Shown here one piece after another: positions 5,234-59,637 of a stretch of DNA of 64,000 bases (positions within the stretch are counted from its first letter, which is position 1; every line of letters starts with the position of its first letter). The translations under genes and the position numbers were made by a program. Origin of the DNA: an uncultured Gemmatimonadota bacterium. Lineage in GTDB: Bacteria > Gemmatimonadota > Gemmatimonadetes > Palauibacterales > Palauibacteraceae. Below the pieces are notes generated by a model that was given only the letters and a program-made list of their open reading frames with translations, did not search any database and was not told the DNA's origin. Location of the stretch: the NCBI GenBank assembly GCA_964480515.1, contig CAYZOT010000005.1, forward strand, positions 18,674-82,673, read 5' to 3'.

Positions 5234-7705
5234 ATGAAACGAAGATCACTTTTTCTTATCGTTGTGCTCGCAACCTTCTTTTGCATGACAGCCCGCCCGA
5301 TATCTGTCGACGGCCAATGGAAGGCCCGTTATCCGAAAGTCGATGGGTACAATCACCACGTATACCTGGAAGGGTATGAGCTTCCATTCCTTACGAACGG
5401 TCCCATCGATCCTGCACCATCGCCGGACGGCGATCGGGTGGCCTTCTCCGCGCGAGGTTGGATCTGGGTCATGGATTTAGAGACAAGCTCTGCGCGTCGG
5501 CTGACTATGGGGCCAGACATGGATTTTCGCCCCGCATGGTCACCCGACGGCCGTATGCTAGCGTTCGTGAGGGACAATGATCACGACACCTCGATTATGT
5601 TCATCGACAGTGACTCGGGTGCCGAGCTGGGCCAAGTAGATTCTCCCGCGCTCGAACTTGATCCGGCATTCTCCGCAGATGGCACCTTACTCTTCTATTC
5701 TTCAGCGGAAGAGGGTGACCTGGATCTTTGGGCGATTAACATCGTCAGCCACGAAAAACGCCGTGTCACGTCAGATGAAGGAATCGAGCTCCGCCCTCAA
5801 CCTGGAGCAAACTCGTTAGTCTACCTTAAAAAGGGATCCCGGATCTCGGATCAAGTGGTGCTCCGAGTCCCTGGAGTTGATACTCCCCGGATCTTGATCC
5901 AGGGTAAAATCGCGTCGATGGCGCGTCCGGCATTAAGCCCCGATGAGTCCACCATTGCACTGAACTGGCCTACACAAGATGGGTGGGAACTTCGTCTGCT
6001 GAATGTTGATGACCCAGGACCCTCGATTCTTCTTGCCTCTGGAGGGCTCCCGCTAACCCCTGCTTGGAGTGCCAATGGAGAGTGGATCTACTTTTCTGAA
6101 GCGGATGAACGTGAACGGATGAGGCTAAAGCGAGTTCGTGGAATAGGCGGCCCGATAGAGGTGGTGCCTGTTCTCAGCTGGGAATGGGGAGAACCAACGT
6201 CAACGGTCCGTGTCCGCACGGTGTTCGAATCCGGCGGTGCTCCCGTGCCTGCTCGCCTGAACGTACTAGACGCGCGCGGGCATCCGATTATCCCTGCGGA
6301 GACGGCCGCTCGATTCGATGGGGAGAGTGGGCGCGTCTTCTTCTACTCCCCCGGTGTAATCGAACTTTCCGTCCCAGGAAGAGTTGCTACAGTGTCGGCA
6401 GTTCAAGGGCTTGCCACGCCTGAAGTCACGGAGAGCACCGATCTCGGACTACAAGGGGTCACTGAACTTGAAATTGTCCTTTCACCTCTTTGGGATGCGC
6501 GTGCTGCAGGGTGGACTTCAGGTGAGCATCATTTCCACCTCAACTACGGTGGCCCGTACGACCTCTCACCGTCTGATCTTGTGCCGATAATGAAGGGTGA
6601 AGCACTTGATCTGGCGACCCCGTTGCTTGCAAACCTTCATAATCGATTTGAGGACCAGGATCTTTGGCGTTGGCAGAAGTCTGATCAAGCCCCGTTGATC
6701 CGCTTTGGCCAGGAGGTACGTGCTCATTTTTTAGGACACGTGGGGTTGATTGGTATCGACGAGCTATTTTGGCCTTGGGTTTGGGGCCCAGTTGGATCCG
6801 AGGTGTATGGCTCGGATGACCGAGAGAATGCTGAAGCGCTTTCTCATGCCCGATCGCAGGGCGGGTTGGGTTATTATGTACATCCGGTCAGTCCTAATAG
6901 ACCAAAAGAAGCGGCCCCTTGGGCTGAGCTGCCATTCGCCGAACTCATGCCGAATATTCCCCTTGAAATCGTCGCAGATGCGGTCTTGGGGGATCTTGAT
7001 GCGCTTGAGGTAGTATGCCTTTGGAGCGATGAGGTGAGTACGGCCCAACTCTGGCACCGGTTTCTCAACCTCGGCATCCCGGTGGCTCCCTCTGCCGGTA
7101 CGGATGTTATGACTAATTTCTATCGTACGATGGCTCCGGGTACGGCACGGGTGTACGCTCAGACGGGCGATGTACTGAACTGGCCCACATATCTGGATGC
7201 ACTGCGTCACGGTCGTTCTTTCGTGACGAATGGCCCGTTTCTCGACTTCCGTATCGGAGGAGGTACCCCTGGCGATGTCATATCAGCGGGCGCTGCGGAA
7301 TGGGAGTTGGATCTCCTCACTGCCTCGGGCGTTGATCAAGTCGATCTGATCGTGAATGGTGAAGTTGTTTGGTCTGAATCTGGTATTGAATCAGCCGGTT
7401 CTCGAAAGTATCAGGGCAAAATCGAACTTCCCGAAGGAGGCTGGGTTGCGATCCGAGCCCTTGGGGGAGAAGCAAATTGGCCGAGCATGGCTAACTATCC
7501 GTTCGCGCATACTGGGCCGGTGTGGATCAAGGCGGTTGGGAGCACAGATCAACAGGCCAGAACTGCCGCGGCACAGGAGCTGATGCAAGTCCTAGCACTA
7601 GGAGAGGGACGACTGATCCAGGGCTATCGCGATGCGGACATTCCAAACCTTCTCGCCCGCTTTGCTGAGGCGCGTTCACGCCTGGAGACTTTAGCTGTTC
7701 CTTGA
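5234..7705 (+). CDS. TolB-like beta-propeller fused to a putative metal-dependent hydrolase domain (PHP/CehA-McbA-like, HxH motif)
   Basis: Start moved to the internal ATG at 5234, which gives the signal peptide MKRRSLFLIVVLATFFCMTA (the ORF-track start 5153 adds 27 aa). The N-terminal half has PSPDGDRVAF/WSPDGRMLAF/FSADGTLLF TolB-type repeats. The C-terminal half has EHHFHLNYGG followed by spaced His/Asp/Glu residues typical of binuclear metallohydrolases. The family assignment of the C-terminal domain is uncertain. Confidence 0.5.
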   Translation: MKRRSLFLIVVLATFFCMTARPISVDGQWKARYPKVDGYNHHVYLEGYELPFLTNGPIDPAPSPDGDRVAFSARGWIWVMDLETSSARRLTMGPDMDFRPAWSPDGRMLAFVRDNDHDTSIMFIDSDSGAELGQVDSPALELDPAFSADGTLLFYSSAEEGDLDLWAINIVSHEKRRVTSDEGIELRPQPGANSLVYLKKGSRISDQVVLRVPGVDTPRILIQGKIASMARPALSPDESTIALNWPTQDGWELRLLNVDDPGPSILLASGGLPLTPAWSANGEWIYFSEADERERMRLKRVRGIGGPIEVVPVLSWEWGEPTSTVRVRTVFESGGAPVPARLNVLDARGHPIIPAETAARFDGESGRVFFYSPGVIELSVPGRVATVSAVQGLATPEVTESTDLGLQGVTELEIVLSPLWDARAAGWTSGEHHFHLNYGGPYDLSPSDLVPIMKGEALDLATPLLANLHNRFEDQDLWRWQKSDQAPLIRFGQEVRAHFLGHVGLIGIDELFWPWVWGPVGSEVYGSDDRENAEALSHARSQGGLGYYVHPVSPNRPKEAAPWAELPFAELMPNIPLEIVADAVLGDLDALEVVCLWSDEVSTAQLWHRFLNLGIPVAPSAGTDVMTNFYRTMAPGTARVYAQTGDVLNWPTYLDALRHGRSFVTNGPFLDFRIGGGTPGDVISAGAAEWELDLLTASGVDQVDLIVNGEVVWSESGIESAGSRKYQGKIELPEGGWVAIRALGGEANWPSMANYPFAHTGPVWIKAVGSTDQQARTAAAQELMQVLALGEGRLIQGYRDADIPNLLARFAEARSRLETLAVP

Positions 7706-7742
7706 GGTTTTCGGCCGTTCTGTTTCTGAGGGTGTTTCTGCT

Positions 7743-8180
7743 GTGGTGAAGCGATCGATCGCTCTTGTGATAGAAGATCTAACGGAAGAGGGCATTCGCT
7801 GGTTGCTGGTGCGCCGCCCTCCGGATGATCACGACCTCCCGAATATTTGGGGTTTGCCCGCTGGTTCACACCGGGAAGGCGAAACGGAGGAGGCGCTTGT
7901 CGCTCGGATTGGACACGACAAGCTTGGTGTCGAACTGTCATCATCTATTGAGCTGCTAGCGGAAGGTTCAGATAGCCGGACAGAGGGCGAACTCGTTATG
8001 CGGCTATACTCCGCGAGTATTGTCTCCGGACAGCCTGAGGTGCCACAGGCGATTACAGGAGTAACTCAATACACCGAGTGGGCATGGGGGCTCTCCGAAG
8101 ATCTTGTTGCCGGTGCCTCCTGTGGTTCCCTGTGCTGTGAGCTGGGATTAGATCTGGTTTCCGGGACTGACGGAACGTAG
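7743..8180 (+). CDS. Small Nudix-like hydrolase (degenerate Nudix box)
   Basis: 145 aa. WLLVRRPP...WGLPAGSHREGETEEALVARIGHDKLGV resembles the Nudix fold and box (Gx5Ex7REUxEExGU) but with substitutions, so the call is weak. Confidence 0.35.
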   Translation: MVKRSIALVIEDLTEEGIRWLLVRRPPDDHDLPNIWGLPAGSHREGETEEALVARIGHDKLGVELSSSIELLAEGSDSRTEGELVMRLYSASIVSGQPEVPQAITGVTQYTEWAWGLSEDLVAGASCGSLCCELGLDLVSGTDGT

Positions 8181-8183
8181 GAA

Positions 8184-9452
8184 ATGAATAGATATGAGAC
8201 TCTAGACCTTCCGAAGGCCCACAAGATATCTCACCCCCCCTTCTGTTCTTTTTTTGGCTATTATGACAAATGCCCCTGGGACGAAACCAATCGATATCTG
8301 TTGGGTCATCGCGTTGATCGGACGAGCACCCCGACCGATCATGGCTCGATCGTTACCGTCGGTCACTATGATCTTGAGGATGGCAATCATTTTACTCCTC
8401 TAGCGGAAACGACGAGTTGGAATTGGCAGCAAGGGGCAATGCTGCAATGGCTCGAGACGAGCCCTACAGACAAGGTTTTGTTCAATCGTGCTACCGACTG
8501 CGGATACCAAACTGTCGTCTGTGACCTCAAGAACGGACATGAGAGGACGGTTGATAAACCGCTTGTTGCTGCCTCTCCTCGCGGAGACTTCATCTTGTCC
8601 TATGATTTTTCGCGGCTGGCTGTTACCCACCCCACCATTGGCTATTTCACTCATCCAATAGCTCGGAACCTTGAGAAACAACCGTCCGACGATGGGCTCT
8701 TCTGCGTTGACTTGAGGAGTGGCGAGGAGAGCCTGATCCTCAGTTATGCTGCTGCGGCTTCTCTTCAACCCTTGCCGTCAATGAACAGCGCGATCCATTG
8801 GTTTACCCACGCGGCAGTAAACCCAACTGGGACCCGGATACTCTTCTTGCACCGTTGGACGAAACGGGTGGAGGATGAAAATCAGTGGTTCCACCGTCTG
8901 ATCACCGCGAATCCGGATGGCAGCTCAATCGCTATCCTTCAAACCAGTGAGCATCCTGCCCCGAGCGGCGATGAGGGAAGTGATTGGACCTATGCGTACG
9001 AAGAAAACGCTAATCAGATATCCCACCCAGTCTGGGTCGGCGCGGACCACATCTTGGCATGGTCTACCCGCGGGGAGCGCAGTCGATATCATCTCTACAC
9101 CGACCGGTCCTCTGACGTCGAAGAAATAGGTGGCGACACTCTTCGACAAAATGGGCATTTCACGATTAGCCCAAACAAAAAATGGCTACTGAGCGACACC
9201 TATCCAGATCCAAGCAACTCTTGTCGTAGCCTGTTCTTATTTCATTTGACCGAAAGACGGACCGTTCCACTCGGGGACTTCTTTTCTGATCCACACTTAG
9301 CAAAAGAAGCGCGGTGTGATTTGCATCCACGCTGGCGGCGGGACGGGCAAGCGGTTTGCATCGATTCGGTACACGAGGGAGATCGACAACTCTACACCAT
9401 TGACGTCTCACACCTAGTAGATACTCCTTTGCGAGAACCACGCCGACCTTAG
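8184..9452 (+). CDS. Oligogalacturonate-lyase-like (Ogl/PF14583-type) beta-propeller protein
   Basis: 422 aa. The N-terminal FGYYDKCPWDETNRYLLG resembles the Ogl N-terminus (Y-x-KCF-x-x-DG-x-LLFG). The C-terminal CDLHPRWRRDGQAVCIDSVHEGDRQLYTIDV resembles the Ogl C-terminal THPHPSF-x-DDKQILFTSD segment. Based on recalled Ogl sequences only; moderate confidence. Confidence 0.45.
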   Translation: MNRYETLDLPKAHKISHPPFCSFFGYYDKCPWDETNRYLLGHRVDRTSTPTDHGSIVTVGHYDLEDGNHFTPLAETTSWNWQQGAMLQWLETSPTDKVLFNRATDCGYQTVVCDLKNGHERTVDKPLVAASPRGDFILSYDFSRLAVTHPTIGYFTHPIARNLEKQPSDDGLFCVDLRSGEESLILSYAAAASLQPLPSMNSAIHWFTHAAVNPTGTRILFLHRWTKRVEDENQWFHRLITANPDGSSIAILQTSEHPAPSGDEGSDWTYAYEENANQISHPVWVGADHILAWSTRGERSRYHLYTDRSSDVEEIGGDTLRQNGHFTISPNKKWLLSDTYPDPSNSCRSLFLFHLTERRTVPLGDFFSDPHLAKEARCDLHPRWRRDGQAVCIDSVHEGDRQLYTIDVSHLVDTPLREPRRP

Positions 9453-9472
9453 GAATATCTCGGTTACTCGCC

Positions 9473-10924
9473 TCAATTTAGCTTGCAGTCTAGCTGAGAT
9501 GCGGCGGCTAGGGGGGGGCGAGACAAAGCGAGTCCGATATACGCGAGGGATGATAGGATCATCGCGGGAAATACTTCATGGACCAATGCCCCGTAAGGGG
9601 TGAGGTCCCACACCAAAAGAACAAATGCTCCGAGAAATAACGAGGCCACGGCTCCAGCACCGGTCCCACGTTTCCAGAATAGTCCGAAGACCACTGCCGG
9701 GAAAAAACACGCAGCGTACAAGCTGCCCGAAAACGATGTGAGTGTCACGATACTAGCTGGCGGGCGTACTGCGAGGAGCGCCGTAATGAGCGCAAAGACT
9801 GCAACCCAGCGACGAGTTTCCTTAACCACATGGTTTTCATCGACGCTACGAAGAACGGAGATGACGTCACGTTCCCAAGTTGATGCCATCACCAGTAGAA
9901 CACTGTCAAGTGAGGACATGGCGGCAGCCAACATAGCGACAAGTACAAAAGCCGCCGGTAATGCCGGGAGGATATCAGCATTGCCTAGGAGTGTGGGTAC
10001 AACGAGATCAGAGTCGGTGAGGCCACTGCCCAATACACCGTGGGCGTATAGGCCGATTGGCATGAGAATCGTATAGACCACCAGGAACGCTGCAGTTGAC
10101 ACAAACAACCCGACCCGCACGGCGCGTTTGTCTGCTAGCGCGTAGAATCTCGAAAGCTGGCGCGGATCTACGATGAACTTGAGTGTTCCTGCCACAATGA
10201 TGCCGATGAGGACTGGAAAAGGCATCGCAGCGTCCCATCGGAACAGCTCGGACGTCAGTTCCGCGTCGCGGATACTTTCGATTGCTCCGATCCCGCCCGC
10301 GCTATTTACCGTGCCCCAGAACAGCAGTATTGCGGCGAATACCATCACCACGCCTTGAACCGCGTCCGTCTTAACCACCGATATGAAGCCTCCGACGGCT
10401 GTGTAGAGCATGACGACGACGAAGACAAACCCGATTGCTGCTACGTACGGGATGTCCAGGAAAATCTCCAGGAGACTCCCAACTCCTTTAAAGACCGCGA
10501 TCATGTATAAAAAGCTTGCGGAGATCACGATCAGTGCCGCCAATGAGCGGGCTATGCGGCTCTCAAACCGGAAACCCACATAGTCTGCTAGGGTGACGGA
10601 ATCGACTGCTCCCGTGAATGCGCGGAGTCGTGGAGCGATCCATAACCAGGCGGATAGCGAGAACACAACAACGGTAGGGGCTAACAGCAGCCAAGGTGCA
10701 CCGTACGTATATGCTTGGCCCGAAAAACCCACGAAGCTATTAGTGCTTGAGTAGGTCGCGAAGAAAGACAGCCCAAGGACCATACCACCCATCGATCGTC
10801 CGCCGATGTAGTAGTCAGTGCGGCCCTTAGTGCCCCGGCGTCCCTCCAACGCATGCCAGAAAATAAGCGCCCCATAGCCCGCAATAAGGGTGAGCGCAAT
10901 CCAATGTGCTTGAAGCCAAGCCAT
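9473..10924 (-). CDS. Sodium:solute symporter (SSS family) transporter
   Basis: 483 aa and multi-TM. The N-terminal region YYIGGRSMGGMVLGLSFFATYSSTNSFVGFSGQAYTYG matches the SSS-family signature region of PutP/PanF-type carriers. Confidence 0.8.
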   Translation of the reverse strand: MAWLQAHWIALTLIAGYGALIFWHALEGRRGTKGRTDYYIGGRSMGGMVLGLSFFATYSSTNSFVGFSGQAYTYGAPWLLLAPTVVVFSLSAWLWIAPRLRAFTGAVDSVTLADYVGFRFESRIARSLAALIVISASFLYMIAVFKGVGSLLEIFLDIPYVAAIGFVFVVVMLYTAVGGFISVVKTDAVQGVVMVFAAILLFWGTVNSAGGIGAIESIRDAELTSELFRWDAAMPFPVLIGIIVAGTLKFIVDPRQLSRFYALADKRAVRVGLFVSTAAFLVVYTILMPIGLYAHGVLGSGLTDSDLVVPTLLGNADILPALPAAFVLVAMLAAAMSSLDSVLLVMASTWERDVISVLRSVDENHVVKETRRWVAVFALITALLAVRPPASIVTLTSFSGSLYAACFFPAVVFGLFWKRGTGAGAVASLFLGAFVLLVWDLTPYGALVHEVFPAMILSSLAYIGLALSRPPLAAASQLDCKLN

Positions 10925-48667: not shown

Positions 48668-49621
48668 TTACAATGGTCCAGTCGACTGTGTTTGTATTTC
48701 GGCAAGGATTTGTTCGAACAAGGCTCCTGCGCGATGTGCTCCAAGATTGCATAGATAAATGTGTTTAATCCCGAGCTTGCGTAGCGCGATGATGGCATTG
48801 GCGCAGTGTTTCACAGGGCTTATGCCTGATTCAAACTCCGCTGCTATTTCGTCAACAGGAACTGGTAAGAAGCTAGACAGGCGTTTGAGCGAATCGCGTC
48901 GGCCATTCCGATAGAAAAAGACTCCGAAGGCTCCCGGGATATTGAGGCCCGCGTCGTCGGTCGCGCGCAGCCACCTCTCTACCATGGGAAGTTCGTGCTG
49001 TGAGACAACTTGAGTCAGGTAATAGTCTGCTTCGAAGTTGGGGTCCATGACAAACTGGATTTGTTCATCGGTCGGGTGGTGTGGGTTTACCCAACCACCC
49101 AAGGCCATCCCAGGTGCCCGTTCACGGAGTTGTTGCCTGAGTTCATATGAGTGCGGCACACAGCGTGCGGCGCCTATCACATCGCCCCCAACAACAGTTA
49201 AGGCGTCGAGCCCTCCTAGCTGTGCACGATCTCCATAGTGAAGGCAGTACTCCAGTGAATGCTTGGTGGTTAGAAAAGGGACCAGCCGCCAAGGCTCTAC
49301 CTCACTGGTGAGATTTATCGTGAGATGTTGCAGGTTTTCTTCCTCCTCTTGCCCAACTGTATTATCGGTGAGCATGAGAAAGGCGTCACGAGACACGACG
49401 CGACGGACAGAATGGGAAAGATCAATCCAGCTGTCTATTGCCCCGCTTCGTGTGAGATCACTTCGAGGCGGACGAAGTTCAACGCCGATGAGCGGTTTGT
49501 TAGACTGCAGGCGCTCAAGAAACCGAGTCGGTTCTGGCGTACTACTGTTCAAATTGGAATCACTGTGCATTGAGTAAACATAGCTCGACGTTGCAAAGAA
49601 TGCCGACGAGTTACAGAGCAT
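48668..49621 (-). CDS. Methylenetetrahydrofolate reductase (MetF)-like protein
   Basis: 317 aa. PLIGVELRPP resembles the MetF FSFEFFPP region. YYLTQVVSQ resembles ITQFFFD. NIPGAFGVFF resembles IIPGILPV. The C-terminal GIKHIYLCNLG resembles GVKDFHFYTLNR. The true start may be the internal Met at 49570. It is convergent with the yitJ-like gene. Confidence 0.5.
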   Translation of the reverse strand: MLCNSSAFFATSSYVYSMHSDSNLNSSTPEPTRFLERLQSNKPLIGVELRPPRSDLTRSGAIDSWIDLSHSVRRVVSRDAFLMLTDNTVGQEEEENLQHLTINLTSEVEPWRLVPFLTTKHSLEYCLHYGDRAQLGGLDALTVVGGDVIGAARCVPHSYELRQQLRERAPGMALGGWVNPHHPTDEQIQFVMDPNFEADYYLTQVVSQHELPMVERWLRATDDAGLNIPGAFGVFFYRNGRRDSLKRLSSFLPVPVDEIAAEFESGISPVKHCANAIIALRKLGIKHIYLCNLGAHRAGALFEQILAEIQTQSTGPL

Positions 49622-49725: not shown

Positions 49726-50223
49726 ATGTCTGTCCCTAGTAATGACCTTCTGACCTTGTTAGCTCGAACACCGGCCACTGTTCGAACAATCTTAGAAGAC
49801 CTTCCTGAACATCTTCTTCATGCAAGTGTGGGAGAGGGTGGATCAAGCCCCGTTATTGCGCTTACGCGCTTAATCCAAGGTGAGATGGACAATTGGATTC
49901 TGCTAGAAGAGAGTGTTGGACTGTCTGAAATTATCGAATCTGCAAAGCACACCCGTCTCACACAGGATCATTCGCTTGACGAAATGCTTGCTCAGTTTTC
50001 GAATTTGCGAAAAACGACTCTAATCGCCTTTAGTAGACTGCTCGAAGGTGGAAAAGATTTGGATGGTGACTGTACACAACAAGGCTTGAGGGATGGTACC
50101 CTTCAAGAACTGCTTGCGACTTATGCTGTTAACGATCTAACCCACATCGCTCGCATCGTTCGCACAGTCGCTGCCCAATTTGACGATGGTGCAGTTCATG
50201 GAAGCAATACGAACCGATCCTGA
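49726..50223 (+). CDS. Small hypothetical protein, possibly DinB/YfiT-like four-helix-bundle superfamily
   Basis: 165 aa with a good GAGGAGG RBS. Predicted helical. There is weak resemblance to the DinB_2/mycothiol-dependent isomerase N-terminal fold (LEDLPEHLL and NDLTHIARI). Low confidence. Confidence 0.3.
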   Translation: MSVPSNDLLTLLARTPATVRTILEDLPEHLLHASVGEGGSSPVIALTRLIQGEMDNWILLEESVGLSEIIESAKHTRLTQDHSLDEMLAQFSNLRKTTLIAFSRLLEGGKDLDGDCTQQGLRDGTLQELLATYAVNDLTHIARIVRTVAAQFDDGAVHGSNTNRS

Positions 50224-50333: not shown

Positions 50334-52415
50334 ATGAAGAGATTATGGGTCCGTCGCGCGTATAGTTGTTCTACTCTCCTCTGTGCTCTACTCATTTCGA
50401 CGAGTGGAGTTGCTCGTGCACAGGGAAAAGAGGCCACGAACATCTTCGGACCGGCCGATGTGTTCGAACTCGAGTATGTGGCCGATCCGCAGATCTCAAG
50501 AGATGGATTGCAGGTTGTCTACGTGCGGACATTTCTTGACATCATGACCGACAGGGAACGCAGCAATCTGTGGATCGTGAATTACGATGGATCAGAACAC
50601 CGTCCCCTTCTCACAGGGCAGCAGAACTTTTCTTCGCCGCGTTGGTCGCCCGATGGCTCCAGGTTGCTCTATGTCACGAGTGACGAGAACGGAAAACAAC
50701 AACTATTTCTTCGCTGGATGGATACCGGACAGACTGCCATGCTTACGCACCTTGAGCGTGGTCCAACTGGTGTTTCATGGTCACCGGATGGGGAGAAAAT
50801 CGCGTTCAGTATGTTTGTCCCTGACGCAATCAATCCATTTGCGGAGCTTCCCACCAAACCGGATGGGGCAGATTGGGCGCCGCCTGCCAAAACCTATGAA
50901 CGACTAATCTACCGGGCGGACGGGGCAGGTTTCCTCCCGCTGGGTCACTCTCAGATTTTCGTGCTGCCAGTCGAAGGAGGGACACCTCGCCAACTCACAG
51001 ATGGGCCATATGATCACGGAGGCGGCCTCGAATGGACGCCTGATTCGCAGTATCTGATCGTTTCGGCTAACCGACGTGAGGACTGGGAATACCATGCAAG
51101 TGACTCAGAGATATACGAGATCGAAATTGACGAAGGTGAAGTGCGCCAGCTCACGGATCGTCGGGGGCCAGACGGTGGACCAGCATTGTCGCCCGATGGC
51201 CGAAAGATCGCTTACCTAGGGTATGACGATCGCTTCCTGGGTCACCAGGTCTCGAAGCTCTACATCATGAATCGAGATGGAAGTGATCCTCGTATGATTG
51301 CCGATGACCTGGATCGTTCGATAGGGAACCTGCAGTGGGCTGGTGATGGTCAAGGAATTTTCGTTCAATACGATACTGAAGGAAATACTCGTCTTGCTCA
51401 CGTCAATTTGAACGGATCCGTCACCGATCTTGCCTCGGACGTGCAGGGCCTTTCGCTTGGGCGACCCTATGGTGGCGGAACCTTCACTGTGTCCGTGAAT
51501 GGGCGTTTTGCGTTTACGTATGGGACACCCGGTCACCCAGCTGACCTTGCAGTGGGTTCACCTGATACCGAACCGACCAGATTGACGTGGGTGAACGAAG
51601 ACCTCTTTGAACAGAAGCAGATCGGTGACGTTGAGGAGGTTTGGTATGAATCCTCCCACGATGGACTCCCAATCCAGGGTTGGATTGCGAAACCGCCAGG
51701 ATTCGATTCGAACAAGAAGTATCCACTCATACTCGAAATTCATGGAGGACCGTTCTCGAACTATGGGGACCGGTTTAGTGCAGAAGTTCAACTCTATGCG
51801 TCAGCGGGCTACGTCGTCTTGTATACCAATCCACGTGGAAGCACGAGTTATGGAGAGGACTTCGGAAACGAAATTCACCACGCGTATCCAGGAAACGATT
51901 TTTATGATCTGATGTCAGGAGTTGATGAGGTGATTCGCCGTGGGTATGTGGATGAGGAGCAACTGTTTGTGACCGGTGGTTCGGGGGGCGGAGTGTTGAC
52001 AGCGTGGATTGTAAGTCACACGGATCGGTTTGCAGCAGCCGCTTCTCAGAAGCCGGTAATTAACTGGTATAGTTGGGTCCTTACCGCAGATATGGGTGGA
52101 ACGAGCGGGCTAAATTACTGGTTCCCCGATAAACCATGGAACGCACTTGAACACTACATGGACCGTTCGCCGATTCACCACGTTGCAAACGTCAAGACAC
52201 CGACCATGCTGATTACGGGTGAAGTGGACTGGCGGACTCCGATGTCTGAGTCTGAGCAGTTCTATCAGGCTCTCAAGATCCAACAAATTCCGTCAGCGCT
52301 CGTTCGCATTCCGGAGGCATCTCATGGAATTGGGGCACGTCCAAGCCATATGATCTCGAAAGTCCAACACATACTGGCTTGGTTTGAACGCTATCGGACT
52401 TCTGGGAAGATGTAA
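50334..52415 (+). CDS. S9 family serine peptidase with TolB-like propeller, secreted (close paralogue of the 13760..15775 gene)
   Basis: Start moved to the ATG at 50334 (signal peptide MKRLWVRRAYSCSTLLCALLISTSGVARAQ, GGAGG RBS; ORF-track start 50265). EIHGGPFSNYGDRFSAEVQLYASAGYVVLYTNPRGSTSYGEDFG is nearly identical to the 13760 paralogue. The GxSxG elbow is GGSGGG, and the catalytic region is TGEVDWRTP...PEASHG. Confidence 0.85.
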   Translation: MKRLWVRRAYSCSTLLCALLISTSGVARAQGKEATNIFGPADVFELEYVADPQISRDGLQVVYVRTFLDIMTDRERSNLWIVNYDGSEHRPLLTGQQNFSSPRWSPDGSRLLYVTSDENGKQQLFLRWMDTGQTAMLTHLERGPTGVSWSPDGEKIAFSMFVPDAINPFAELPTKPDGADWAPPAKTYERLIYRADGAGFLPLGHSQIFVLPVEGGTPRQLTDGPYDHGGGLEWTPDSQYLIVSANRREDWEYHASDSEIYEIEIDEGEVRQLTDRRGPDGGPALSPDGRKIAYLGYDDRFLGHQVSKLYIMNRDGSDPRMIADDLDRSIGNLQWAGDGQGIFVQYDTEGNTRLAHVNLNGSVTDLASDVQGLSLGRPYGGGTFTVSVNGRFAFTYGTPGHPADLAVGSPDTEPTRLTWVNEDLFEQKQIGDVEEVWYESSHDGLPIQGWIAKPPGFDSNKKYPLILEIHGGPFSNYGDRFSAEVQLYASAGYVVLYTNPRGSTSYGEDFGNEIHHAYPGNDFYDLMSGVDEVIRRGYVDEEQLFVTGGSGGGVLTAWIVSHTDRFAAAASQKPVINWYSWVLTADMGGTSGLNYWFPDKPWNALEHYMDRSPIHHVANVKTPTMLITGEVDWRTPMSESEQFYQALKIQQIPSALVRIPEASHGIGARPSHMISKVQHILAWFERYRTSGKM

Positions 52416-54328
52416 TGGGTCGATTCCGTGGAGATGACCTAGGGCTTGATCAGGCGATTACTCGTCGTGACTTCGTTAATGTCGCGGGAGCAGGCCTCGC
52501 TGCCTCAACGCTTTTGGCCTGTGGCCTCGATGGGCCTGTGGGGGACAGGTCGGTTGCAGTAGACCCATGGTCAGATGTCTTGGGGTCTGACTGGTATGGG
52601 CCAGGTGGGGTTGGGGATTATGCGTCTTCGCATGGGAATACGCCCGAAGTCGTGAAGGCAGCCCATCGTCTACGAGATGCTCGTCACCCAGCACCTAACG
52701 GTGCCATCGATACAGGGGAACATTTTGATGTGGTGATTGTTGGCGGAGGGTTAGCAGGTTTGTCAGCCGCACACCATTTCAAACGATTACACCCATCAGG
52801 CCACTGCCTCGTGATTGACAACCACCCCATTTTTGGGGGCGAAGCGAAGCGCAATGAACTCGAGGTCGATGGCGTTCGGTTAATAGGCCCTCAAGGTTCA
52901 AACGACTTCGGAGTCAGGCCCGCGACCGGCGAGCCCGATGACTACTTCACTGCACTTGGAATTCCCCGGGAGTTTGAATACGCGCCCTGGGATGGTGATG
53001 TTCGGGTTCCCTTAGAGAACTATGGTTTTATGCATTGGGTGGAGGATCAGTTCTCGGTGGGCCATTTCTTCGGGGAATCAGGGGGCGATGGCTGGATTCG
53101 GAGACTATGGGAGGATCCATCACAGGCTCCATGGTCGGCCGAGTTGCGTAATGGGTTTGCCAAATGGAGAAGTGCTAAAGTCAATGATCACCGCCCGACG
53201 GGCGCGACCCCGGAGGATCTGGAGTGGCTCGATCGCATAACCCTCAAAGAGTACTACGAGAATTTATTGGGCCTTCCGCCGGAGGTGACAGCATATGTAG
53301 ATCCCATCCTGGCCAGCATCATTGGGCTTGGCTGTGACGTAGTCTCTGCATGGTGGGGGCATCATTTCGCGCTCCCCGGCTTCGGCCTTCCGTCACGGTA
53401 CGACGATCAAGCTTTTCACTCATTCCCCGGCGGGAACACGGGCATCGCTCGCTATTTCGTGAAAGATGTTATTCCGGATGCGATCGACGGTAAGGTGGAA
53501 TTTGGTGATGTCATCGGTGGACAGATCGACTTCGGGGCGCTCGATAAAGCGGGAGAAACTGTCCGCATTCGATTGGCTTCGTCCGTCATTGATGTTCGTC
53601 ATATAGGAGGACGAGACGCGGGCGAACGTGTTCGTGTGTCCTACTTGCACGAGGGCCGGACCTACACAGTCGAAGCCTCTGGAGTGGTCATGGCATCGGG
53701 CGGCTGGATGAACCGCTATGTCGTAGGGGATTTGCCTGACGAACATCGGGCGGCCTACGAAACATTCCGTCATGGTCCAATTCTCGTGGCCAATGTGGGG
53801 CTCCGAAACTGGCGTTTTCTCGAGCGTCTTGGAATCGCCGCTTGTATTTACGAGGGGGACTTAGGTTTCTCCTGCAATATTCGGCGTCCGATGTATGCTG
53901 GTGAATACCGGCCCCCGTTTGGTCCGGATCACCCAACCATGCTCACGTTTTATATAACATTCGAGAGACCAGGATTGTCGGCAGTAGAGCAAGGGATTGT
54001 CGGTCGTACCGAGCTCCTAAGTACTCCGTTTGCAGAATATGAGCGCCGATTACGGGAACAGATGGTAACCCTGTTCGGGGAGGCAGGTTTCGACCCCGCG
54101 GAGGACATCGGAGGTTTGGTGCTAAACCGTTGGGGCCATGCTTATGTGGCTCCAGGCCCAGGGTTTTTCTTTGGGCAAGGTGGTGCCCCCGCGCCACCGG
54201 ATGTGATTCGAGAACCTTTTGGGCGTATCTCGATCGGTCATTCAGAACTCCGCGGACACCAGAACTGGACGGGTGCGGCAGCGGAAGGGCGACGGGCGCT
54301 TGAGGAAGTTCTGGAAAGGGTATCTTAG
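52415..54328 (+). CDS. Tat-secreted FAD-dependent oxidoreductase (amine-oxidase/spermidine-dehydrogenase-like)
   Basis: 637 aa. The twin-arginine signal is ITRRDFVNVAGAGLAASTLLA. The Rossmann dinucleotide motif is DVVIVGGGLAGLSAAHH. The start overlaps the S9 peptidase stop (ATGTAATG). The specific substrate class is not determinable from sequence alone. Confidence 0.65.
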   Translation: MGRFRGDDLGLDQAITRRDFVNVAGAGLAASTLLACGLDGPVGDRSVAVDPWSDVLGSDWYGPGGVGDYASSHGNTPEVVKAAHRLRDARHPAPNGAIDTGEHFDVVIVGGGLAGLSAAHHFKRLHPSGHCLVIDNHPIFGGEAKRNELEVDGVRLIGPQGSNDFGVRPATGEPDDYFTALGIPREFEYAPWDGDVRVPLENYGFMHWVEDQFSVGHFFGESGGDGWIRRLWEDPSQAPWSAELRNGFAKWRSAKVNDHRPTGATPEDLEWLDRITLKEYYENLLGLPPEVTAYVDPILASIIGLGCDVVSAWWGHHFALPGFGLPSRYDDQAFHSFPGGNTGIARYFVKDVIPDAIDGKVEFGDVIGGQIDFGALDKAGETVRIRLASSVIDVRHIGGRDAGERVRVSYLHEGRTYTVEASGVVMASGGWMNRYVVGDLPDEHRAAYETFRHGPILVANVGLRNWRFLERLGIAACIYEGDLGFSCNIRRPMYAGEYRPPFGPDHPTMLTFYITFERPGLSAVEQGIVGRTELLSTPFAEYERRLREQMVTLFGEAGFDPAEDIGGLVLNRWGHAYVAPGPGFFFGQGGAPAPPDVIREPFGRISIGHSELRGHQNWTGAAAEGRRALEEVLERVS

Positions 54329-54473
54329 GCACACACTGCCGGAGGAGGATGATTCCCTCAACGTGTGGTGTTAGTAAAACTTCCTGATAGTCTGTGAAGC
54401 ATGACTTAGCTTTACGCTAGGCGGTTCTATTGTGAAGGGTCTCGGTCGCCAAACATTTTTTGAGGGAGGTCTG

Positions 54474-56972
54474 ATGCGGGTTCGATCACTCGCGCTTCTT
54501 GCGCTGGTTATTGCATTTCCGGTTTGGTTGGGGTCCTCGTTCCGCGTAGAACCCAATGCGTTTAGTGAAGGCTTTGCAGCCCCCACGACTGATACTCTGA
54601 GAGCTCCTGGGCTTCAAGCCGGAGTTGAGATCCTTAAGGATTTATGGGGCATTTCACACATCTACGCTCAAACTGAACATGATCTCTTTTTTGCGCAGGG
54701 TTACAGTGCGGCTCGGGACCGTATCTTCCAGTTTGAAGTTTGGCGACGTCAGGCGACTGGAACAGTTTCAGAAATTTTGGGGCCGCGTGAACTTGAGCGA
54801 GACCGAGGGGCGCGTTTGTTCCGCTTCCGAAAGGACATCGAGACGGAGCTTGATTTCTATCACCCACGAGGTGGAGAGATTATTCGGGCTTTCGTTGATG
54901 GGGTAAACGCTTACATCGAAGAAACAGAACGGAATCCCGATTTGCTTCCGGTCGAATTCGACATTCTAGGGATCCAGCCTCAGCCTTGGACTCCTGAGGT
55001 GGTGATCTCACGGCATCAAGGACTTCTTGGCAATATTGGGCAAGAGTTGTCGTTGGGCATTTCGGTCGCGGCGGTCGGGTCAGAGAAAGTTAAAGAGATT
55101 GAGTACTTTCATCCGGGTGAACCAGATCTCACTATAGATCCGGCCATTGATGCTTCGCTGCTGAAATCTGAAATCCTCGATGTTTATCGTGCGTTCAGAG
55201 GTCCCATGCGGTTCCGACCTGAAGATGTGCAGCCTGTGTATCGACCTTCCCAAGAGGAAATGGGTGCACTCCCTGGGGGGGGCAAAGCCCTCGACAACAT
55301 CCCCGTGTTCCCAGGTGTCAATGCTCCCTTCGCTCCGGCTGAGAGAGCGCTCTTGGGGAGTAACAACTGGGTCGTATCCGGACAGAGGACGCTTAGTGGG
55401 AACCCGATCATGGCGAACGATCCACATCGTGTGCAGGCAGCTCCATCACTGCGCTACCTGGTTCACCTTGTCGGTCCAGGCTGGGATGTAATAGGGGGTG
55501 GAGAGCCCGTGCTTCCGGGAATATCAATTGGCCATAATCAGCATGGAGCGTGGGGTCTGACGGTATTCTCGACCGATGCCGAAGATTTGTATGTGTATGA
55601 CACACATCCAGATGATCCGAATCGTTATCGGTATGAGGGCGACTGGGAGGCGATGCGTGTTATCGAAGATGCAATCCCTGTTAAGGGCCAAGATGATGCA
55701 AAGGTGCAGCACAAGTTTACTCGTCACGGGCCTGTCGTATATGAAGATCGACAGAACCGTGTGGCGTATGCGGTACGAGCTGGCTGGATGGAGTTCGGTG
55801 GCGCTCCATACCTGGCAAGTCTTCGGATGGACCAAGCTACAACGTGGGAAGAGTTTCGTGAGGCTTGCAATTATAGCCACATTCCAGGTGAAAATATGGT
55901 CTGGGCCGACAGTGAGGGTAACATCGGTTGGCAGGCTGTCGGCATTGCCCCAATCCGTCGAAACTGGAGTGGTTTAGTGCCCGTACCAGGTGATGGCCGG
56001 TATGAGTGGGATGGATATCTTGAGATTAAGCACAAGCCAAACGTGTACAACCCAACTAAGGGGTATTGGGCTACGGCCAACGAAAACCTCGTTCCGCCTA
56101 AATACGAGCACCGCGACGCTGTTGGATGGAGCTGGAGTGATCCATTCAGAAGTGCCCGAATAGGCGAAGTGTTGAGCTCGGGCCGGCGGTTTACGATGGC
56201 AGAGATGATGCAGCTCGCTACGGACTACGTTTCACTTCCGGCCAGGTCACTCGTGCCAATGTTGCGCGGCATCGAATTGAACGGGCAGGTGGAAGAGGCT
56301 CGAGATCAACTTTTGGATTGGAATTTTGAGCTCGGACCTGGATCGCGAAAAGCCGCTATATATGTAGCATGGGAGCGAGAACTTCAGGGAAGTGTCATGA
56401 ACCTCGCGATTCCGACAGAGATCCGAGGCCTGCTCGGATTTGTGTCGATGAAGAAGATGATTGATTGGTTAGGGTCTCCTCCAATCTGGTTTTCTGAGTT
56501 GGGTGAAGGTGATCCAGTTATGGGTCGCGACCGATTCCTGGCGCAGACGTTTACAGAGGCTCTCGAGGAGCTTTCCGATCGATTTGGGGAATCTCCTTGG
56601 GAATATGGATCAGAGAAATTCAAACACATTCGGCTTCGTCACCCTCTGTCAGGAGCTGTCAACGAGGAGACTCGTGCACGACTAGAAGTCGGCCCCATGG
56701 TTCGCGGTGGCAATGGATTCACGGTGAATCAAACTGGTTTCGGGGACAATCAAACATCAGGCGCCTCATTTCGGCTCATAGCGGAGGCAGGAGATTGGGA
56801 TACCGCAGTCTTCACCAACACTCCAGGACAGTCGGGGGATCCGGACGACCCAATGTACCGTAATCTTTTTGAAGGTTGGGCCAAGGACCGATTTTTCCCA
56901 CTTTACTACACGCGCGACAAAATCGAATCAGTGGTTGCGGATCGAATATGGCTTACGACACCTGGTAAGTGA
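54474..56972 (+). CDS. Ntn-hydrolase of the penicillin-acylase (S45) family (penicillin/acyl-homoserine-lactone/N-acyl-amide acylase-like), secreted
   Basis: Start moved to the ATG at 54474 (signal peptide MRVRSLALLALVIAFPVWLG, GGAGG RBS; ORF-track start 54432). The beta-subunit N-terminal nucleophile context is GSNNWVVSG (S-N-x-W), with typical length and alpha-spacer-beta organisation. Confidence 0.85.
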   Translation: MRVRSLALLALVIAFPVWLGSSFRVEPNAFSEGFAAPTTDTLRAPGLQAGVEILKDLWGISHIYAQTEHDLFFAQGYSAARDRIFQFEVWRRQATGTVSEILGPRELERDRGARLFRFRKDIETELDFYHPRGGEIIRAFVDGVNAYIEETERNPDLLPVEFDILGIQPQPWTPEVVISRHQGLLGNIGQELSLGISVAAVGSEKVKEIEYFHPGEPDLTIDPAIDASLLKSEILDVYRAFRGPMRFRPEDVQPVYRPSQEEMGALPGGGKALDNIPVFPGVNAPFAPAERALLGSNNWVVSGQRTLSGNPIMANDPHRVQAAPSLRYLVHLVGPGWDVIGGGEPVLPGISIGHNQHGAWGLTVFSTDAEDLYVYDTHPDDPNRYRYEGDWEAMRVIEDAIPVKGQDDAKVQHKFTRHGPVVYEDRQNRVAYAVRAGWMEFGGAPYLASLRMDQATTWEEFREACNYSHIPGENMVWADSEGNIGWQAVGIAPIRRNWSGLVPVPGDGRYEWDGYLEIKHKPNVYNPTKGYWATANENLVPPKYEHRDAVGWSWSDPFRSARIGEVLSSGRRFTMAEMMQLATDYVSLPARSLVPMLRGIELNGQVEEARDQLLDWNFELGPGSRKAAIYVAWERELQGSVMNLAIPTEIRGLLGFVSMKKMIDWLGSPPIWFSELGEGDPVMGRDRFLAQTFTEALEELSDRFGESPWEYGSEKFKHIRLRHPLSGAVNEETRARLEVGPMVRGGNGFTVNQTGFGDNQTSGASFRLIAEAGDWDTAVFTNTPGQSGDPDDPMYRNLFEGWAKDRFFPLYYTRDKIESVVADRIWLTTPGK

Positions 56973-57144
56973 TTACGGTTATGTTGTGAGTCAGCGGAAG
57001 TTCTATTAGGCCAACAATTTGCAGATGTAAAGCACTATAAAAATATAGTCTCCGACATATCCTCATCCACATGGATATGATATAGTTGTCATGTGAGTTT
57101 TTCGCGTGAGGGGCTCCTTTGATCACCAGGGTACGGAATAGAAA

Positions 57145-57564
57145 ATGAAAGCCGGTATACATCCAGAATACGCAGCGGCCAAGATTACCTGCGCTTGTGG
57201 GCGGGTAACTGAGACCTTTTCGACGGTTGGTGAGATTCATGTCGAGATTTGTTCCCACTGCCACCCGTTCTTCACGGGGCGTCAAAAGCTAGTTGATACG
57301 GCGGGTCGAGTTGAGCGCTTCAAGGCGAAGTATGGCGAATCGCAGACACCAAAAAAGAAGAAGAAGTCGAAGGCAAAGGGTGAGGCGCCCGAAGTAGAGG
57401 CTGAGTCCCAAGACTCTACGGCGGAAGTAGACAGAGAAATCTCTGCCCCTGATCATGCCGACAATGATGCGGACACCGGTGTCGTAACGGCTGACGAAGG
57501 CTCTGATGCGGTGAGTCCAGAGGCCTCGGATGAGGCTGAAGAGGAGTCCCCGGCGGCTTCCTGA
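57145..57564 (+). CDS. rpmE: 50S ribosomal protein L31 (Zn-ribbon type) with long acidic C-terminal extension
   Basis: MKAGIHPEY... and the Cys motifs CACG...[10 protein letters not shown] are diagnostic of L31 type A. The canonical L31 sequence ends near residue 75. It is followed by a lysine run (KKKKKSKAK) and a ~55-aa Asp/Glu/Ser/Ala-rich tail. Confidence 0.9.
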
Positions 57565-57646
57565 GAAGCGCCCCGAGTTCGCGTGGCGTTCCTTCCCTCT
57601 GTCGATCGAGGCTGTTTCGTAAAACTCGATCCGAGACTTGAGCCCA

Positions 57647-58738
57647 ATGCCTGAGATTGATCCTCTGATCGAGCGATTGCGCGAAGCAGTAACTCGATAC
57701 GAAGAGCTTGGCCTTAAGATGGCTGATCCAGATGTGATCAGCGATATTGATCGATTACGGGAACTTGCTAAGGAGCATTCACAGCTTGAGCCCGTAGCTG
57801 CCGCCGCCACTCACCACTTCAAGATGCTTGATGAGTTAAATCAAGCTCGGGAGCTTGTTGCGAGCGGCGAAGATGCGGAGTTGACCGAACTTGCCCAAGC
57901 AGAGGTGGTGGCCCTCGAATCGGAGCGTCAGGAAGCGGAAGAACATCTACAGCGTTTGCTGGTACCCAAGGACCCCCTAGATGATCGTCCTGCGGTGGTC
58001 GAGATTCGGGCTGGCACTGGTGGAGATGAGGCTGCTTTATTTGCGGCCGATCTCTACCGCATGTATTCACGATTCGCGAGCGAATCTGGTTGGACCGTTG
58101 AGCTCGTGAGTTCTAGTGAGGGTACCCTTGGAGGACTCAAAGAAATCGTCTTTATTGCCAGGGGGAAGGAGGCATATGGACGCCTTCGTTATGAATCAGG
58201 TGTGCATCGAGTCCAACGCGTGCCTGAGACCGAAAGTCAGGGTCGAATCCACACTTCGGCGGCTACGGTGGCGGTCCTTCCAGAAGCGGAGGACGTGGAT
58301 GTCGAAATGGCTCAATCTGACCTCAAGATCGATGTGTTTCGGTCCTCGGGCCCTGGTGGACAATCTGTTAACACCACGGACTCTGCCGTACGAGTGACAC
58401 ATGTTCCCACGGGCTTGGTTGTTTCGTGTCAAGATGAAAAATCGCAGCACAAAAATAAAGCAAAGGCCCTGAAAGTCCTTCGCAGTCGGTTGTTAGATAG
58501 AATGATTGCAGAGCAGGAGACAGAGAGGGCGCGAGAGCGGCGGATGCAAGTTGGCACCGGCGATCGTTCCGCGAAGATCCGAACCTACAACTTCCCCCAA
58601 AACCGAATAACAGATCATCGTATTGGACTTACGACTCACCGTCTTGAAGCCATTCTTGGTGGCGATTTGGGCGAGTTGTGTGAGGCGCTGAGAATGGCAG
58701 GCGTTGAGGAACGGATGACTATGAGCCCCAAAGATTGA
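57647..58738 (+). CDS. prfA: Peptide chain release factor 1
   Basis: Has the GGQ motif ([17 protein letters not shown]) and the RF1-specific PxT-like region ([17 protein letters not shown], i.e. P-E-T). Placed at the ATG at 57647 (MPEIDP...); the ORF-track start is TTG 57638. Confidence 0.95.
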
Positions 58739-59637
58739 AGAGTGAGGTGCGTCGTCCAATCGGACCGACCCGGCGCGAGGTTGTGCAGGGGGTTGCCCGT
58801 GAACTCAGCTCTCAGGGCATAGAATCTTCTCGCCTTGAGGCGGAGCGATTGGTGGCAACAGTATTGGATGTGAAGCCTTCAGATCTTTTGGATCAAGGTG
58901 GAGTCCAGCTTGACCCCGCAACCGCGGGTCGAGTTGCGATGGCAGTAGCTCGCCGTCTAAACGGAGAACCCTTACAGCATATAGAAGGTACGGCCGAATT
59001 CCGCAGTATTGAATTGATTTCAGACACGCGTGCCCTGATTCCTCGTCCTGAGACTGAAGAGTTAGTCGATTACATCGAAGATTGGATTGGGAATCGTGCG
59101 CCGATAAATCGTGCCCTAGATATTGGAACGGGTTCGGGGGCTATCGCCCTAGCACTTCTCGATGAAGGACTGGTTAGTCACGTAGTGGGTCTAGACGTGT
59201 CTCAAGAAGCATTGGCTCAAGCGAAGGAAAACATTGAGAATAGTGGTATCGAAGGACTTGAACTCAGATTGTGTCAGTCGGACATTTGGTCCGCGATCTT
59301 ACCACAAGAGACTTTCGACCTCGTCGTTTCAAATCCGCCGTATGTCACCTCCATGGATTGGCGGACGTTAGATCCTAAGGTACGAGATTATGAGCCGCGG
59401 CTTGCCATTGACGGAGGACCAGATGGACTCAAGATCATACGACAGATAATCTCGGGGGCAGCTATTGCACTCGGACTGGGTGGCTGTGTGTTTCTCGAAA
59501 TTGACAGCTCAAAAGGCCCTGCAGTCCTCGACCTTCTTAGGTCAACTTCCGGGCTCTCTGAAGCACGCATCTCCTCGGACTTGTCAGGCAAACCGCGCTT
59601 TGCGAGCGCCATTAAGAGGACTGATCTGCGAGTGTAG
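58735..59637 (+). CDS. prmC: Release-factor glutamine N5-methyltransferase (PrmC/HemK)
   Basis: Has the NPPY motif (VVSNPPYV) and the SAM-binding motif [14 protein letters not shown]. It overlaps the prfA stop by 4 nt. The start codon as drawn is TTG. Confidence 0.85.

Follow-up and report, generated by a model that had tools for sequence, protein, structure and literature searches.

An S9 peptidase, an SpdH-like flavoprotein and an S45 acylase encoded side by side in a low-GC Gemmatimonadota lineage

The three genes and their products

We analysed a 64,000-nucleotide stretch of DNA (the window) from contig CAYZOT010000005.1 of an uncultured Gemmatimonadota bacterium, in which genes for an S9 peptidase, a flavoprotein that binds flavin adenine dinucleotide (FAD) and an N-terminal nucleophile (Ntn) acylase follow one another on the forward strand (Table 1). 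A note made earlier from the sequence alone (the original prediction) had described them as a periplasmic module of an S9 peptidase, an FAD oxidoreductase and an Ntn acylase, and both the coordinates and these gene identities are borne out by the open reading frames (ORFs) and by Pfam. Catalytic or cofactor residues are intact in all three proteins. Three same-strand genes for exported proteins in a row are by themselves within chance for a Gram-negative genome.

The S9 start codon is preceded at a distance of 8 nt by GGAGG. The overlap that had been noticed between the S9 stop and the flavoprotein start is present at the junction ATGTAATG, where the true overlap is 1 nt (TAATG) and the flavoprotein ATG begins on the last base of the S9 stop codon (…AAG ATG TAA TGG…). 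An overlap of this kind implies co-transcription and probably translational coupling and, judged by it, the S9 and flavoprotein genes form one operon. The acylase gene starts, again as described, 145 nt past the flavoprotein stop on the same strand, at an ATG at 54474 preceded by GAGGGAGG; translation could alternatively begin at an in-frame GTG at 54432. The spacer between the two genes has a fold z-score of -0.26 and no terminator-like structure, and scanning it for promoters and terminators gave chance-level counts and just a weak 6-bp hairpin (54405-54421).

The S9 peptidase is composed of a Sec-type signal, a PD40 beta-propeller and an alpha/beta-hydrolase domain; Pfam matches PF00326 (Peptidase_S9) at 178 bits and, in addition, the PD40 repeats. 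The protein aligns over its full length with Protein Data Bank (PDB) entry 8wt1 (6.5e-102) and with the acyl-peptide hydrolase of Deinococcus (5yzm, 5e-67), and among solved structures it is nearest to S9C enzymes of the acylaminoacyl-peptidase or carboxypeptidase type. The N-terminus, MKRLWVRR followed by a hydrophobic stretch and …GVARA-QG, has the n/h/c layout of Sec signals. We propose that the peptidase would be exported by Sec and would trim peptides, with a predicted carboxypeptidase or acylaminoacyl-peptidase specificity.

In the flavoprotein, Pfam recognises only the FAD/NAD Rossmann N-terminus (DAO, FAD_binding_2 and NAD_binding_8 at residues 105-155), which contains the GxGxxG FAD motif VVIVGGGLAGLS (residues 106-117, nt 52730-52765). 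A comparison with spermidine dehydrogenase SpdH had been suggested, and it proved to be the right one: a phmmer search of the PDB identifies the flavoprotein as a full-length homologue of SpdH from Pseudomonas aeruginosa (PaSpdH, 7d9f-7d9j; E 2e-54, query residues 72-615, chain residues 42-602). The cofactors of PaSpdH are FAD and a haem b at the surface, the latter ligated by His54 and His562 (PMC12564564). Flavoprotein residues His84 (nt 52664-52666) and His575 (nt 54137-54139) align with these two histidines, are invariant in 23 flavoprotein homologues down to 53% identity and are the predicted axial ligands of haem b. Given the homology to SpdH and the conservation of both ligand histidines, the flavoprotein is best read as an FAD/haem-b dehydrogenase with an electron acceptor other than O2 rather than as an amine oxidase that forms H2O2.

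The twin-arginine motif TRRDFV pointed out in the original prediction occupies residues 16-21 of the flavoprotein, within AITRRDFV (nt 52454-52477), and I15, R17, R18, D19 and F20 are invariant in the same 23 homologues. PaSpdH, encoded by PA3713, is an experimentally validated substrate of twin-arginine translocation (Tat) with the signal MTISRRDFLNG… (PMC6085387). Since this relative has a motif of the same form (ISRRDF), export of the flavoprotein by Tat is supported. The Tat signal is followed by a lipobox, TLLAC-G (residues 32-37, nt 52508-52525), and a lipobox cysteine ([LFM][AGS][GA]C) ends the hydrophobic region in 21 of the 23 homologues. The subgroup is thus a predicted Tat-exported lipoprotein, with a lipid anchor probably attached to Cys36. 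In the mechanism that we propose, the flavoprotein would take up FAD and haem b as it folds in the cytoplasm, before it is exported by Tat and probably anchored through Cys36. It would then oxidise a polyamine-type secondary amine and pass electrons from FAD through the surface haem b to a respiratory acceptor, not to O2. Some loci carry two SpdH-like paralogues (L067, in tandem at 5783-9759; L026; L020), which suggests substrate diversification in the family.

The acylase matches PF01804 (Penicil_amidase) at 659.5 bits over model positions 2-674 of 675, that is, over its full length. Its N-terminus, MRVRSLALLALVIAFPVWLGSS, resembles a Sec signal when read from the sequence. Like the S9 peptidase, it looks like a Sec export in its sequence features and its homology to periplasmic enzymes, in agreement with the Sec signals proposed for both proteins. 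The closest match is the D-succinylase of Cupriavidus (PDB 7eby, 1e-161), to which residues 33-828 are roughly 45% identical as judged by eye from the alignment. More remote matches are, in this order, penicillin G acylases (2e-56), glutaryl-7-ACA acylase (1e-38), cephalosporin acylases (about 1e-20) and PvdQ (1e-11 to 1e-13). Ser296 (LLG-SNNW, nt 55359-55361) aligns with residue 1 of the beta-chain of penicillin G, glutaryl-7-ACA and cephalosporin acylases, which places the Ntn nucleophile where it is found in the solved enzymes, and autoproteolytic processing would be expected at this residue. The acylase is read as a D-succinylase-like S45 Ntn hydrolase that would process itself at Ser296 and deacylate some N-acyl compound.

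The original prediction had placed the acylase with the PvdQ/QuiP/penicillin-acylase type and had named acyl-homoserine lactones (AHLs) among its candidate substrates. A PvdQ-like identity does not hold: the PvdQ equivalog model NF051460 gives 64.5 bits where its cut-off is 950, and matches only residues 295-484, and apart from this sub-threshold match NCBIfam returned nothing for the protein. Homologues with at least 60% identity occur in several phyla, in metagenome-assembled genomes (MAGs) labelled Planctomycetes, Rhodothermales and Acidobacteriota. The names of the 120 best homologues are all generic, and none is informative as to AHL- or penicillin-acylase class. The acylase thereby falls in a large subgroup of D-succinylase-like S45 proteins conserved across phyla. 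One homologue from a metagenome contig (P0122, 87% identical) has Asn in place of the nucleophile Ser (LLGNNNW for LLGSNNW) and is an inactive variant unless the difference is a sequencing error.

Gene order in the clade and beyond

The neighbourhood of the three genes was compared, by tblastn and phmmer, with 79 genome loci that contain SpdH-like relatives (41-98% identity) and with five further loci with called genes. About 18 loci of a marine Gemmatimonadota group, with a flavoprotein at least 67% identical to that of the window, are referred to here as the clade. They share a backbone in which metH - MTHFR fusion - hypothetical(-) - DinB_2 - [IF-2B(-)] - S9 - [methyltransferase] - flavoprotein is followed by [glutaminyl cyclase, aminotransferase(-), DinB(-), LigD(-), Ku, TPR, M23 …] - acylase - rpmE - prfA - prmC, where square brackets enclose genes of the relatives that are missing from the window. 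The glutaminyl cyclase, aminotransferase, LigD, Ku, IF-2B and methyltransferase genes were sought in the whole 64-kb window, and none was found.

Within the clade, the direct order S9 - flavoprotein - acylase exists only in the window and in L001, a closely related MAG. The acylase gene lies approximately 5.7-8 kb downstream of the flavoprotein gene in the roughly 10 other loci that reach the acylase, and it is not within 10 kb of the flavoprotein in L002, L007 and L081. Nearly all clade loci other than the window and L001 have the LigD/Ku end-joining genes between the two. Next after the flavoprotein comes a glutaminyl cyclase gene in 11 loci, and in five a methyltransferase gene stands between S9 and flavoprotein. 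The order is S9-FAD-QC-aminotransferase(-)-LigD(-)-Ku-acylase-L31-prfA-prmC in L080 (QC, glutaminyl cyclase) and S9-methyltransferase-FAD-DinB(-)-LigD(-)-Ku-...-M23-acylase in L083, where the acylase is 8 kb away. Because genes on the opposite strand intervene, the acylase and the flavoprotein share no transcript in these relatives. Of the three-gene order, only the S9-flavoprotein pair is an operon kept in the clade; the adjacency of the acylase is not.

The constant partner of the acylase in the clade is the downstream group rpmE-prfA-prmC. The order acylase-L31-prfA-prmC is identical in L080 and L085, and the acylase of L085 keeps these neighbours even though S9 and flavoprotein genes are not within 8 kb. 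Two loci with close flavoproteins (L082, 76% identity; L084, 71%) present unrelated contexts with neither S9 nor acylase.

Outside the clade, 65 loci contain more distant flavoprotein homologues; at least 3 kb of downstream sequence is available in 49 of them and at least 2.2 kb of upstream sequence in 51. No S45 acylase gene is found in the 49, so that flavoprotein homologues do occur without acylase neighbours, an observation that the original prediction itself had named as one that would speak against it. Likewise, no acylase gene is found in 80 metagenome loci with S9 orthologues (50-76% identity), 51 of which have at least 1.5 kb downstream, and acylase homologues at 60% identity have unrelated neighbours.

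These gene orders bear directly on the dedicated module that had been proposed, a periplasmic pathway for N-acylated amines (AHLs, N-acyl polyamines or lipopeptides) in which the acylase would deacylate, the flavoprotein would oxidise the amine and the peptidase would degrade peptide moieties. Such a pathway would fit the shared strand, the 1-nt overlap, the 145-nt gap without a terminator and the predicted export of all three proteins, and S45 acylases are substrate-promiscuous. It is at odds with the confinement of the direct adjacency to two loci, the opposite-strand genes elsewhere in the clade, the lack of acylase genes at the distant SpdH-like and S9 loci and the unrelated neighbours of the acylase homologues. 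The likeness of the acylase to D-succinylase, its distance from the AHL acylase PvdQ and the exchange of its allele independently of its neighbours (see below) argue against it as well. We consider the dedicated pathway very unlikely.

A narrower proposal is that a true pair is formed by the S9 peptidase and the SpdH-like flavoprotein alone, both acting on one substrate that contains peptide or polyamine, with glutaminyl cyclase and/or methyltransferase added in relatives and the acylase unrelated. Stop/start overlaps run through the clade, as S9-FAD or S9-methyltransferase-FAD, and glutaminyl cyclase, which follows in 11 loci, is another exported enzyme that modifies peptides. Outside the clade, the arrangement S9 (45% identity) - small ORF - FAD (54% identity) is seen in L017, a contig labelled Woeseiaceae. 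This is the only one of the 51 distant SpdH-like loci with sufficient upstream sequence that has an orthologous S9 gene; the other 50 do not, and neither do the loci of the close homologues in L082 and L084. Conversely, 79 of the 80 S9-orthologue loci have no SpdH-like neighbour, and the remaining one is GC-rich and keeps the upstream genes of the clade. The methyltransferase that intervenes in some relatives has no export signal, as judged from its Pfam assignment only, and there is no conserved small partner protein: the ORFs adjoining the flavoprotein gene in L081, L082 and L017 are mutually unrelated. Taken together, a true pairing of these two enzymes is doubtful, if clearly less so than the three-enzyme pathway, and the S9-flavoprotein operon, which is restricted to a single Gemmatimonadota clade, probably does not reflect a pathway.

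Clustering of neighbours across the 79 SpdH-like loci revealed none that is shared beyond clade level, and only weak polyamine-related themes. A spermidine-synthase-like gene (PF01564) adjoins the SpdH-like gene in six loci from Nitrospirota and related MAGs (L028, L029, L030, L040, L059, L069), and class-III aminotransferase, aldehyde dehydrogenase, pyridoxal-phosphate-dependent decarboxylase and TonB-dependent receptor genes recur in four loci each. The theme is weak but coherent and would fit an action of the distant SpdH-like proteins on free polyamines.

Several other features of the segment were recorded. In Palauibacter, the glutaminyl cyclase gene (PF05096) overlaps the flavoprotein stop codon (L080 10001-12735; L002, L003, L005-L008, L010, L013, L027), so that the common operon of the clade consists of S9 peptidase, SpdH-like protein and glutaminyl cyclase, without an obvious shared pathway. 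The 165-aa protein encoded 5' of the S9 gene shows 44-48% identity (tblastn) to the product of the equivalently placed gene of Palauibacter loci, which there matches PF12867 (DinB_2); the protein of the window itself has no Pfam match. On the opposite strand at 48668-49621 lies a gene for a 317-aa protein that matches nothing in Pfam or NCBIfam; Palauibacter genomes encode counterparts of 57-63% identity in the corresponding place, by metH and the S-methyltransferase/MTHFR fusion. The L31 protein encoded by rpmE has 139 aa in the window, some 75 of them in a C-terminal extension rich in Lys and acidic residues, compared with 134 aa in L085 and 84 aa in the Palauibacter-like L080.

Table 1. Positions of the three genes, the S9 catalytic triad and flanking features in the window
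Feature	Position	Strand	Basis or remark
165-aa protein gene 5' of S9, counterpart of DinB_2-family gene	49726..50223	+	tblastn, position
S9C-type serine peptidase, 693 aa	50334..52415	+	ATG start, TAA stop; PF00326 + PD40
S9 triad Ser550	GGSGGG, nt 51975-51992	+	GxSxGG; invariant among orthologues
S9 triad Asp632	GEVDWRT, nt 52218-52238	+	invariant among orthologues
S9 triad His664	EASHGI, nt 52314-52331	+	invariant among orthologues
SpdH-like FAD/haem-b amine dehydrogenase (flavoprotein), 637 aa	52415..54328	+	phmmer vs PDB 7d9f-7d9j
Flavoprotein-acylase spacer, 145 nt	54329..54473	+	no recognisable terminator or promoter
S45 penicillin-acylase-family Ntn amidohydrolase precursor, D-succinylase-like, 832 aa	54474..56972	+	PF01804
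rpmE, ribosomal protein L31, long C-terminal tail; conserved downstream neighbour of the acylase	57145..57564	+	PF01197, 104 bits
prfA	57638-58738	+	translation; conserved in relatives (tblastn); Pfam in L080, L085; housekeeping backbone
prmC	58735-59637	+	translation; conserved in relatives (tblastn); Pfam in L080, L085; housekeeping backbone

A mosaic acylase allele and the reading of the trio

The DNA of the window is approximately 91-98% identical to L001, the MAG of an uncultured Gemmatimonadetes bacterium from Tara Oceans. This level of identity extends from metH through the flavoprotein gene and again from rpmE through tmk. Between these two blocks it falls to 58-76% over approximately 54714-57000 (12300-14700 in L001), a segment that covers most of the acylase gene, and it recovers just past the acylase stop codon. 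At the protein level, the two acylases share 93% identity over residues 1-85 and 68% over the rest. As the drop in identity is limited to the acylase, one of the two lineages has gained a divergent acylase allele by recombination. The pattern suggests an allelic replacement in which the divergent allele came in without touching the S9-flavoprotein pair, and on this evidence the acylase has an evolutionary history separate from that of its neighbours.

The GC content of the window is 53%, compared with 63-71% in Candidatus Palauibacter and other relatives of the clade (L002-L016, L080-L085), and the window is consistent with a streamlined pelagic lineage. In the reading that we favour, the genes metH - MTHFR fusion - hypothetical - DinB_2 - S9 - flavoprotein - acylase - rpmE - prfA - prmC would constitute a conserved segment of the core genome. 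The acylase would abut the flavoprotein only because this compact, low-GC lineage is without the separating genes (methyltransferase, glutaminyl cyclase, aminotransferase, LigD, Ku and others), which would have been lost from it, or never present in it, leaving the trio contiguous. The observation that the three-gene linkage is not conserved across lineages beyond the shared backbone synteny agrees with this. We consider it likely that the trio represents three independently acting, nutrient-scavenging enzymes of the envelope, namely an exopeptidase, a polyamine-type dehydrogenase and a deacylase, which became adjacent through lineage-specific compaction. This reading starts from the gene identities, conserved residues and synteny patterns as observed, and to these it adds a predicted localisation, predicted substrates and predicted transcription units.

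Several points weigh against this reading. The S9-flavoprotein operon is kept across a family-level clade and recurs in the Woeseiaceae-labelled L017, and a functional link between these two proteins is a minority possibility. Also, the trio is tightly packed on one strand, with a spacer in which no terminator is detected, and may be co-transcribed. Co-expression of the trio could, moreover, have been selected secondarily. Finally, with an identity of only about 30% to PaSpdH the amine substrate of the flavoprotein is uncertain, and the substrates of all three enzymes are predicted ones.

A more elaborate reading would be that deletion of the intervening genes made a new, co-expressed operon of three enzymes, which was co-opted for the breakdown of N-acylated or peptide-conjugated polyamines on the envelope side, with the Tat-exported, lipid-anchored SpdH-type dehydrogenase feeding electrons into respiration. 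We regard this scenario as very unlikely.

A real module would amount to a new way of handling N-acyl amines outside the cell, which might serve quorum quenching or the utilisation of lipopeptides. With the evidence against it, the value of the locus lies mainly in annotation: the flavoprotein can be annotated as an SpdH-type FAD/haem-b amine dehydrogenase that is Tat-exported and probably a lipoprotein. Members of the SpdH-like family abound in marine and soil metagenomes and plausibly take part in polyamine use. Read as independent enzymes brought together by compaction, the trio is an example of how a shrinking genome can give an operon-like adjacency without a shared function. All three proteins belong to known families, and what is mildly unusual about them is the predicted Tat-lipoprotein form of the SpdH-like protein and the mosaic allele of the acylase.

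Comparison with known systems

N-acylated polyamines are known to be degraded by an acetylpolyamine amidohydrolase, a zinc enzyme of the histone deacetylase fold, followed by oxidation of the polyamine. The logic of deacylation and then oxidation is that of the original prediction. The deacylase of the known route, however, has a fold that is unrelated to S45, and nothing found here ties the S45 acylase to polyamines.

With PvdQ, the AHL/pyoverdine acylase, the acylase of the window has in common the S45 Ntn fold and the Ser nucleophile. The likeness is weak and resides in the N-terminal region of the beta-chain, and the protein is much nearer to D-succinylase, penicillin G acylases and glutaryl-7-ACA acylase. 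The D-succinylase (DSA) of Cupriavidus sp. P4-10-C (7EBY/7EA4; MEROPS S45) has the same SNNW motif and belongs to the same length class (about 825 aa). DSA acts on N-succinyl-D-amino acids; the acylase of the window is likened to it by sequence. DSA itself has been characterised as a biocatalyst, and its own natural role is unknown (PMC11241749, PMC12149444).

The S9 peptidase has the propeller-hydrolase build and the Ser-Asp-His triad in common with the S9C acylaminoacyl-peptidase/S9 carboxypeptidase group (8WT1; Deinococcus radiodurans 5YZM). It differs from this group in carrying a signal peptide, and export is therefore predicted.

The flavoprotein has the FAD Rossmann motif, both haem-b histidines and the I[ST]RRDF motif in common with SpdH of P. 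aeruginosa (PA3713; 7D9F-7D9J; EC 1.5.99.6). The identity of about 30% is estimated from the alignment and leaves the amine substrate uncertain. The two proteins also differ at the end of the Tat signal, where the clade of the window has a lipobox Cys and PA3713 an AxA-type site. A further difference from PaSpdH lies in the genetic context, since in the clade of the window the SpdH-like gene shares an operon with an S9 peptidase gene.

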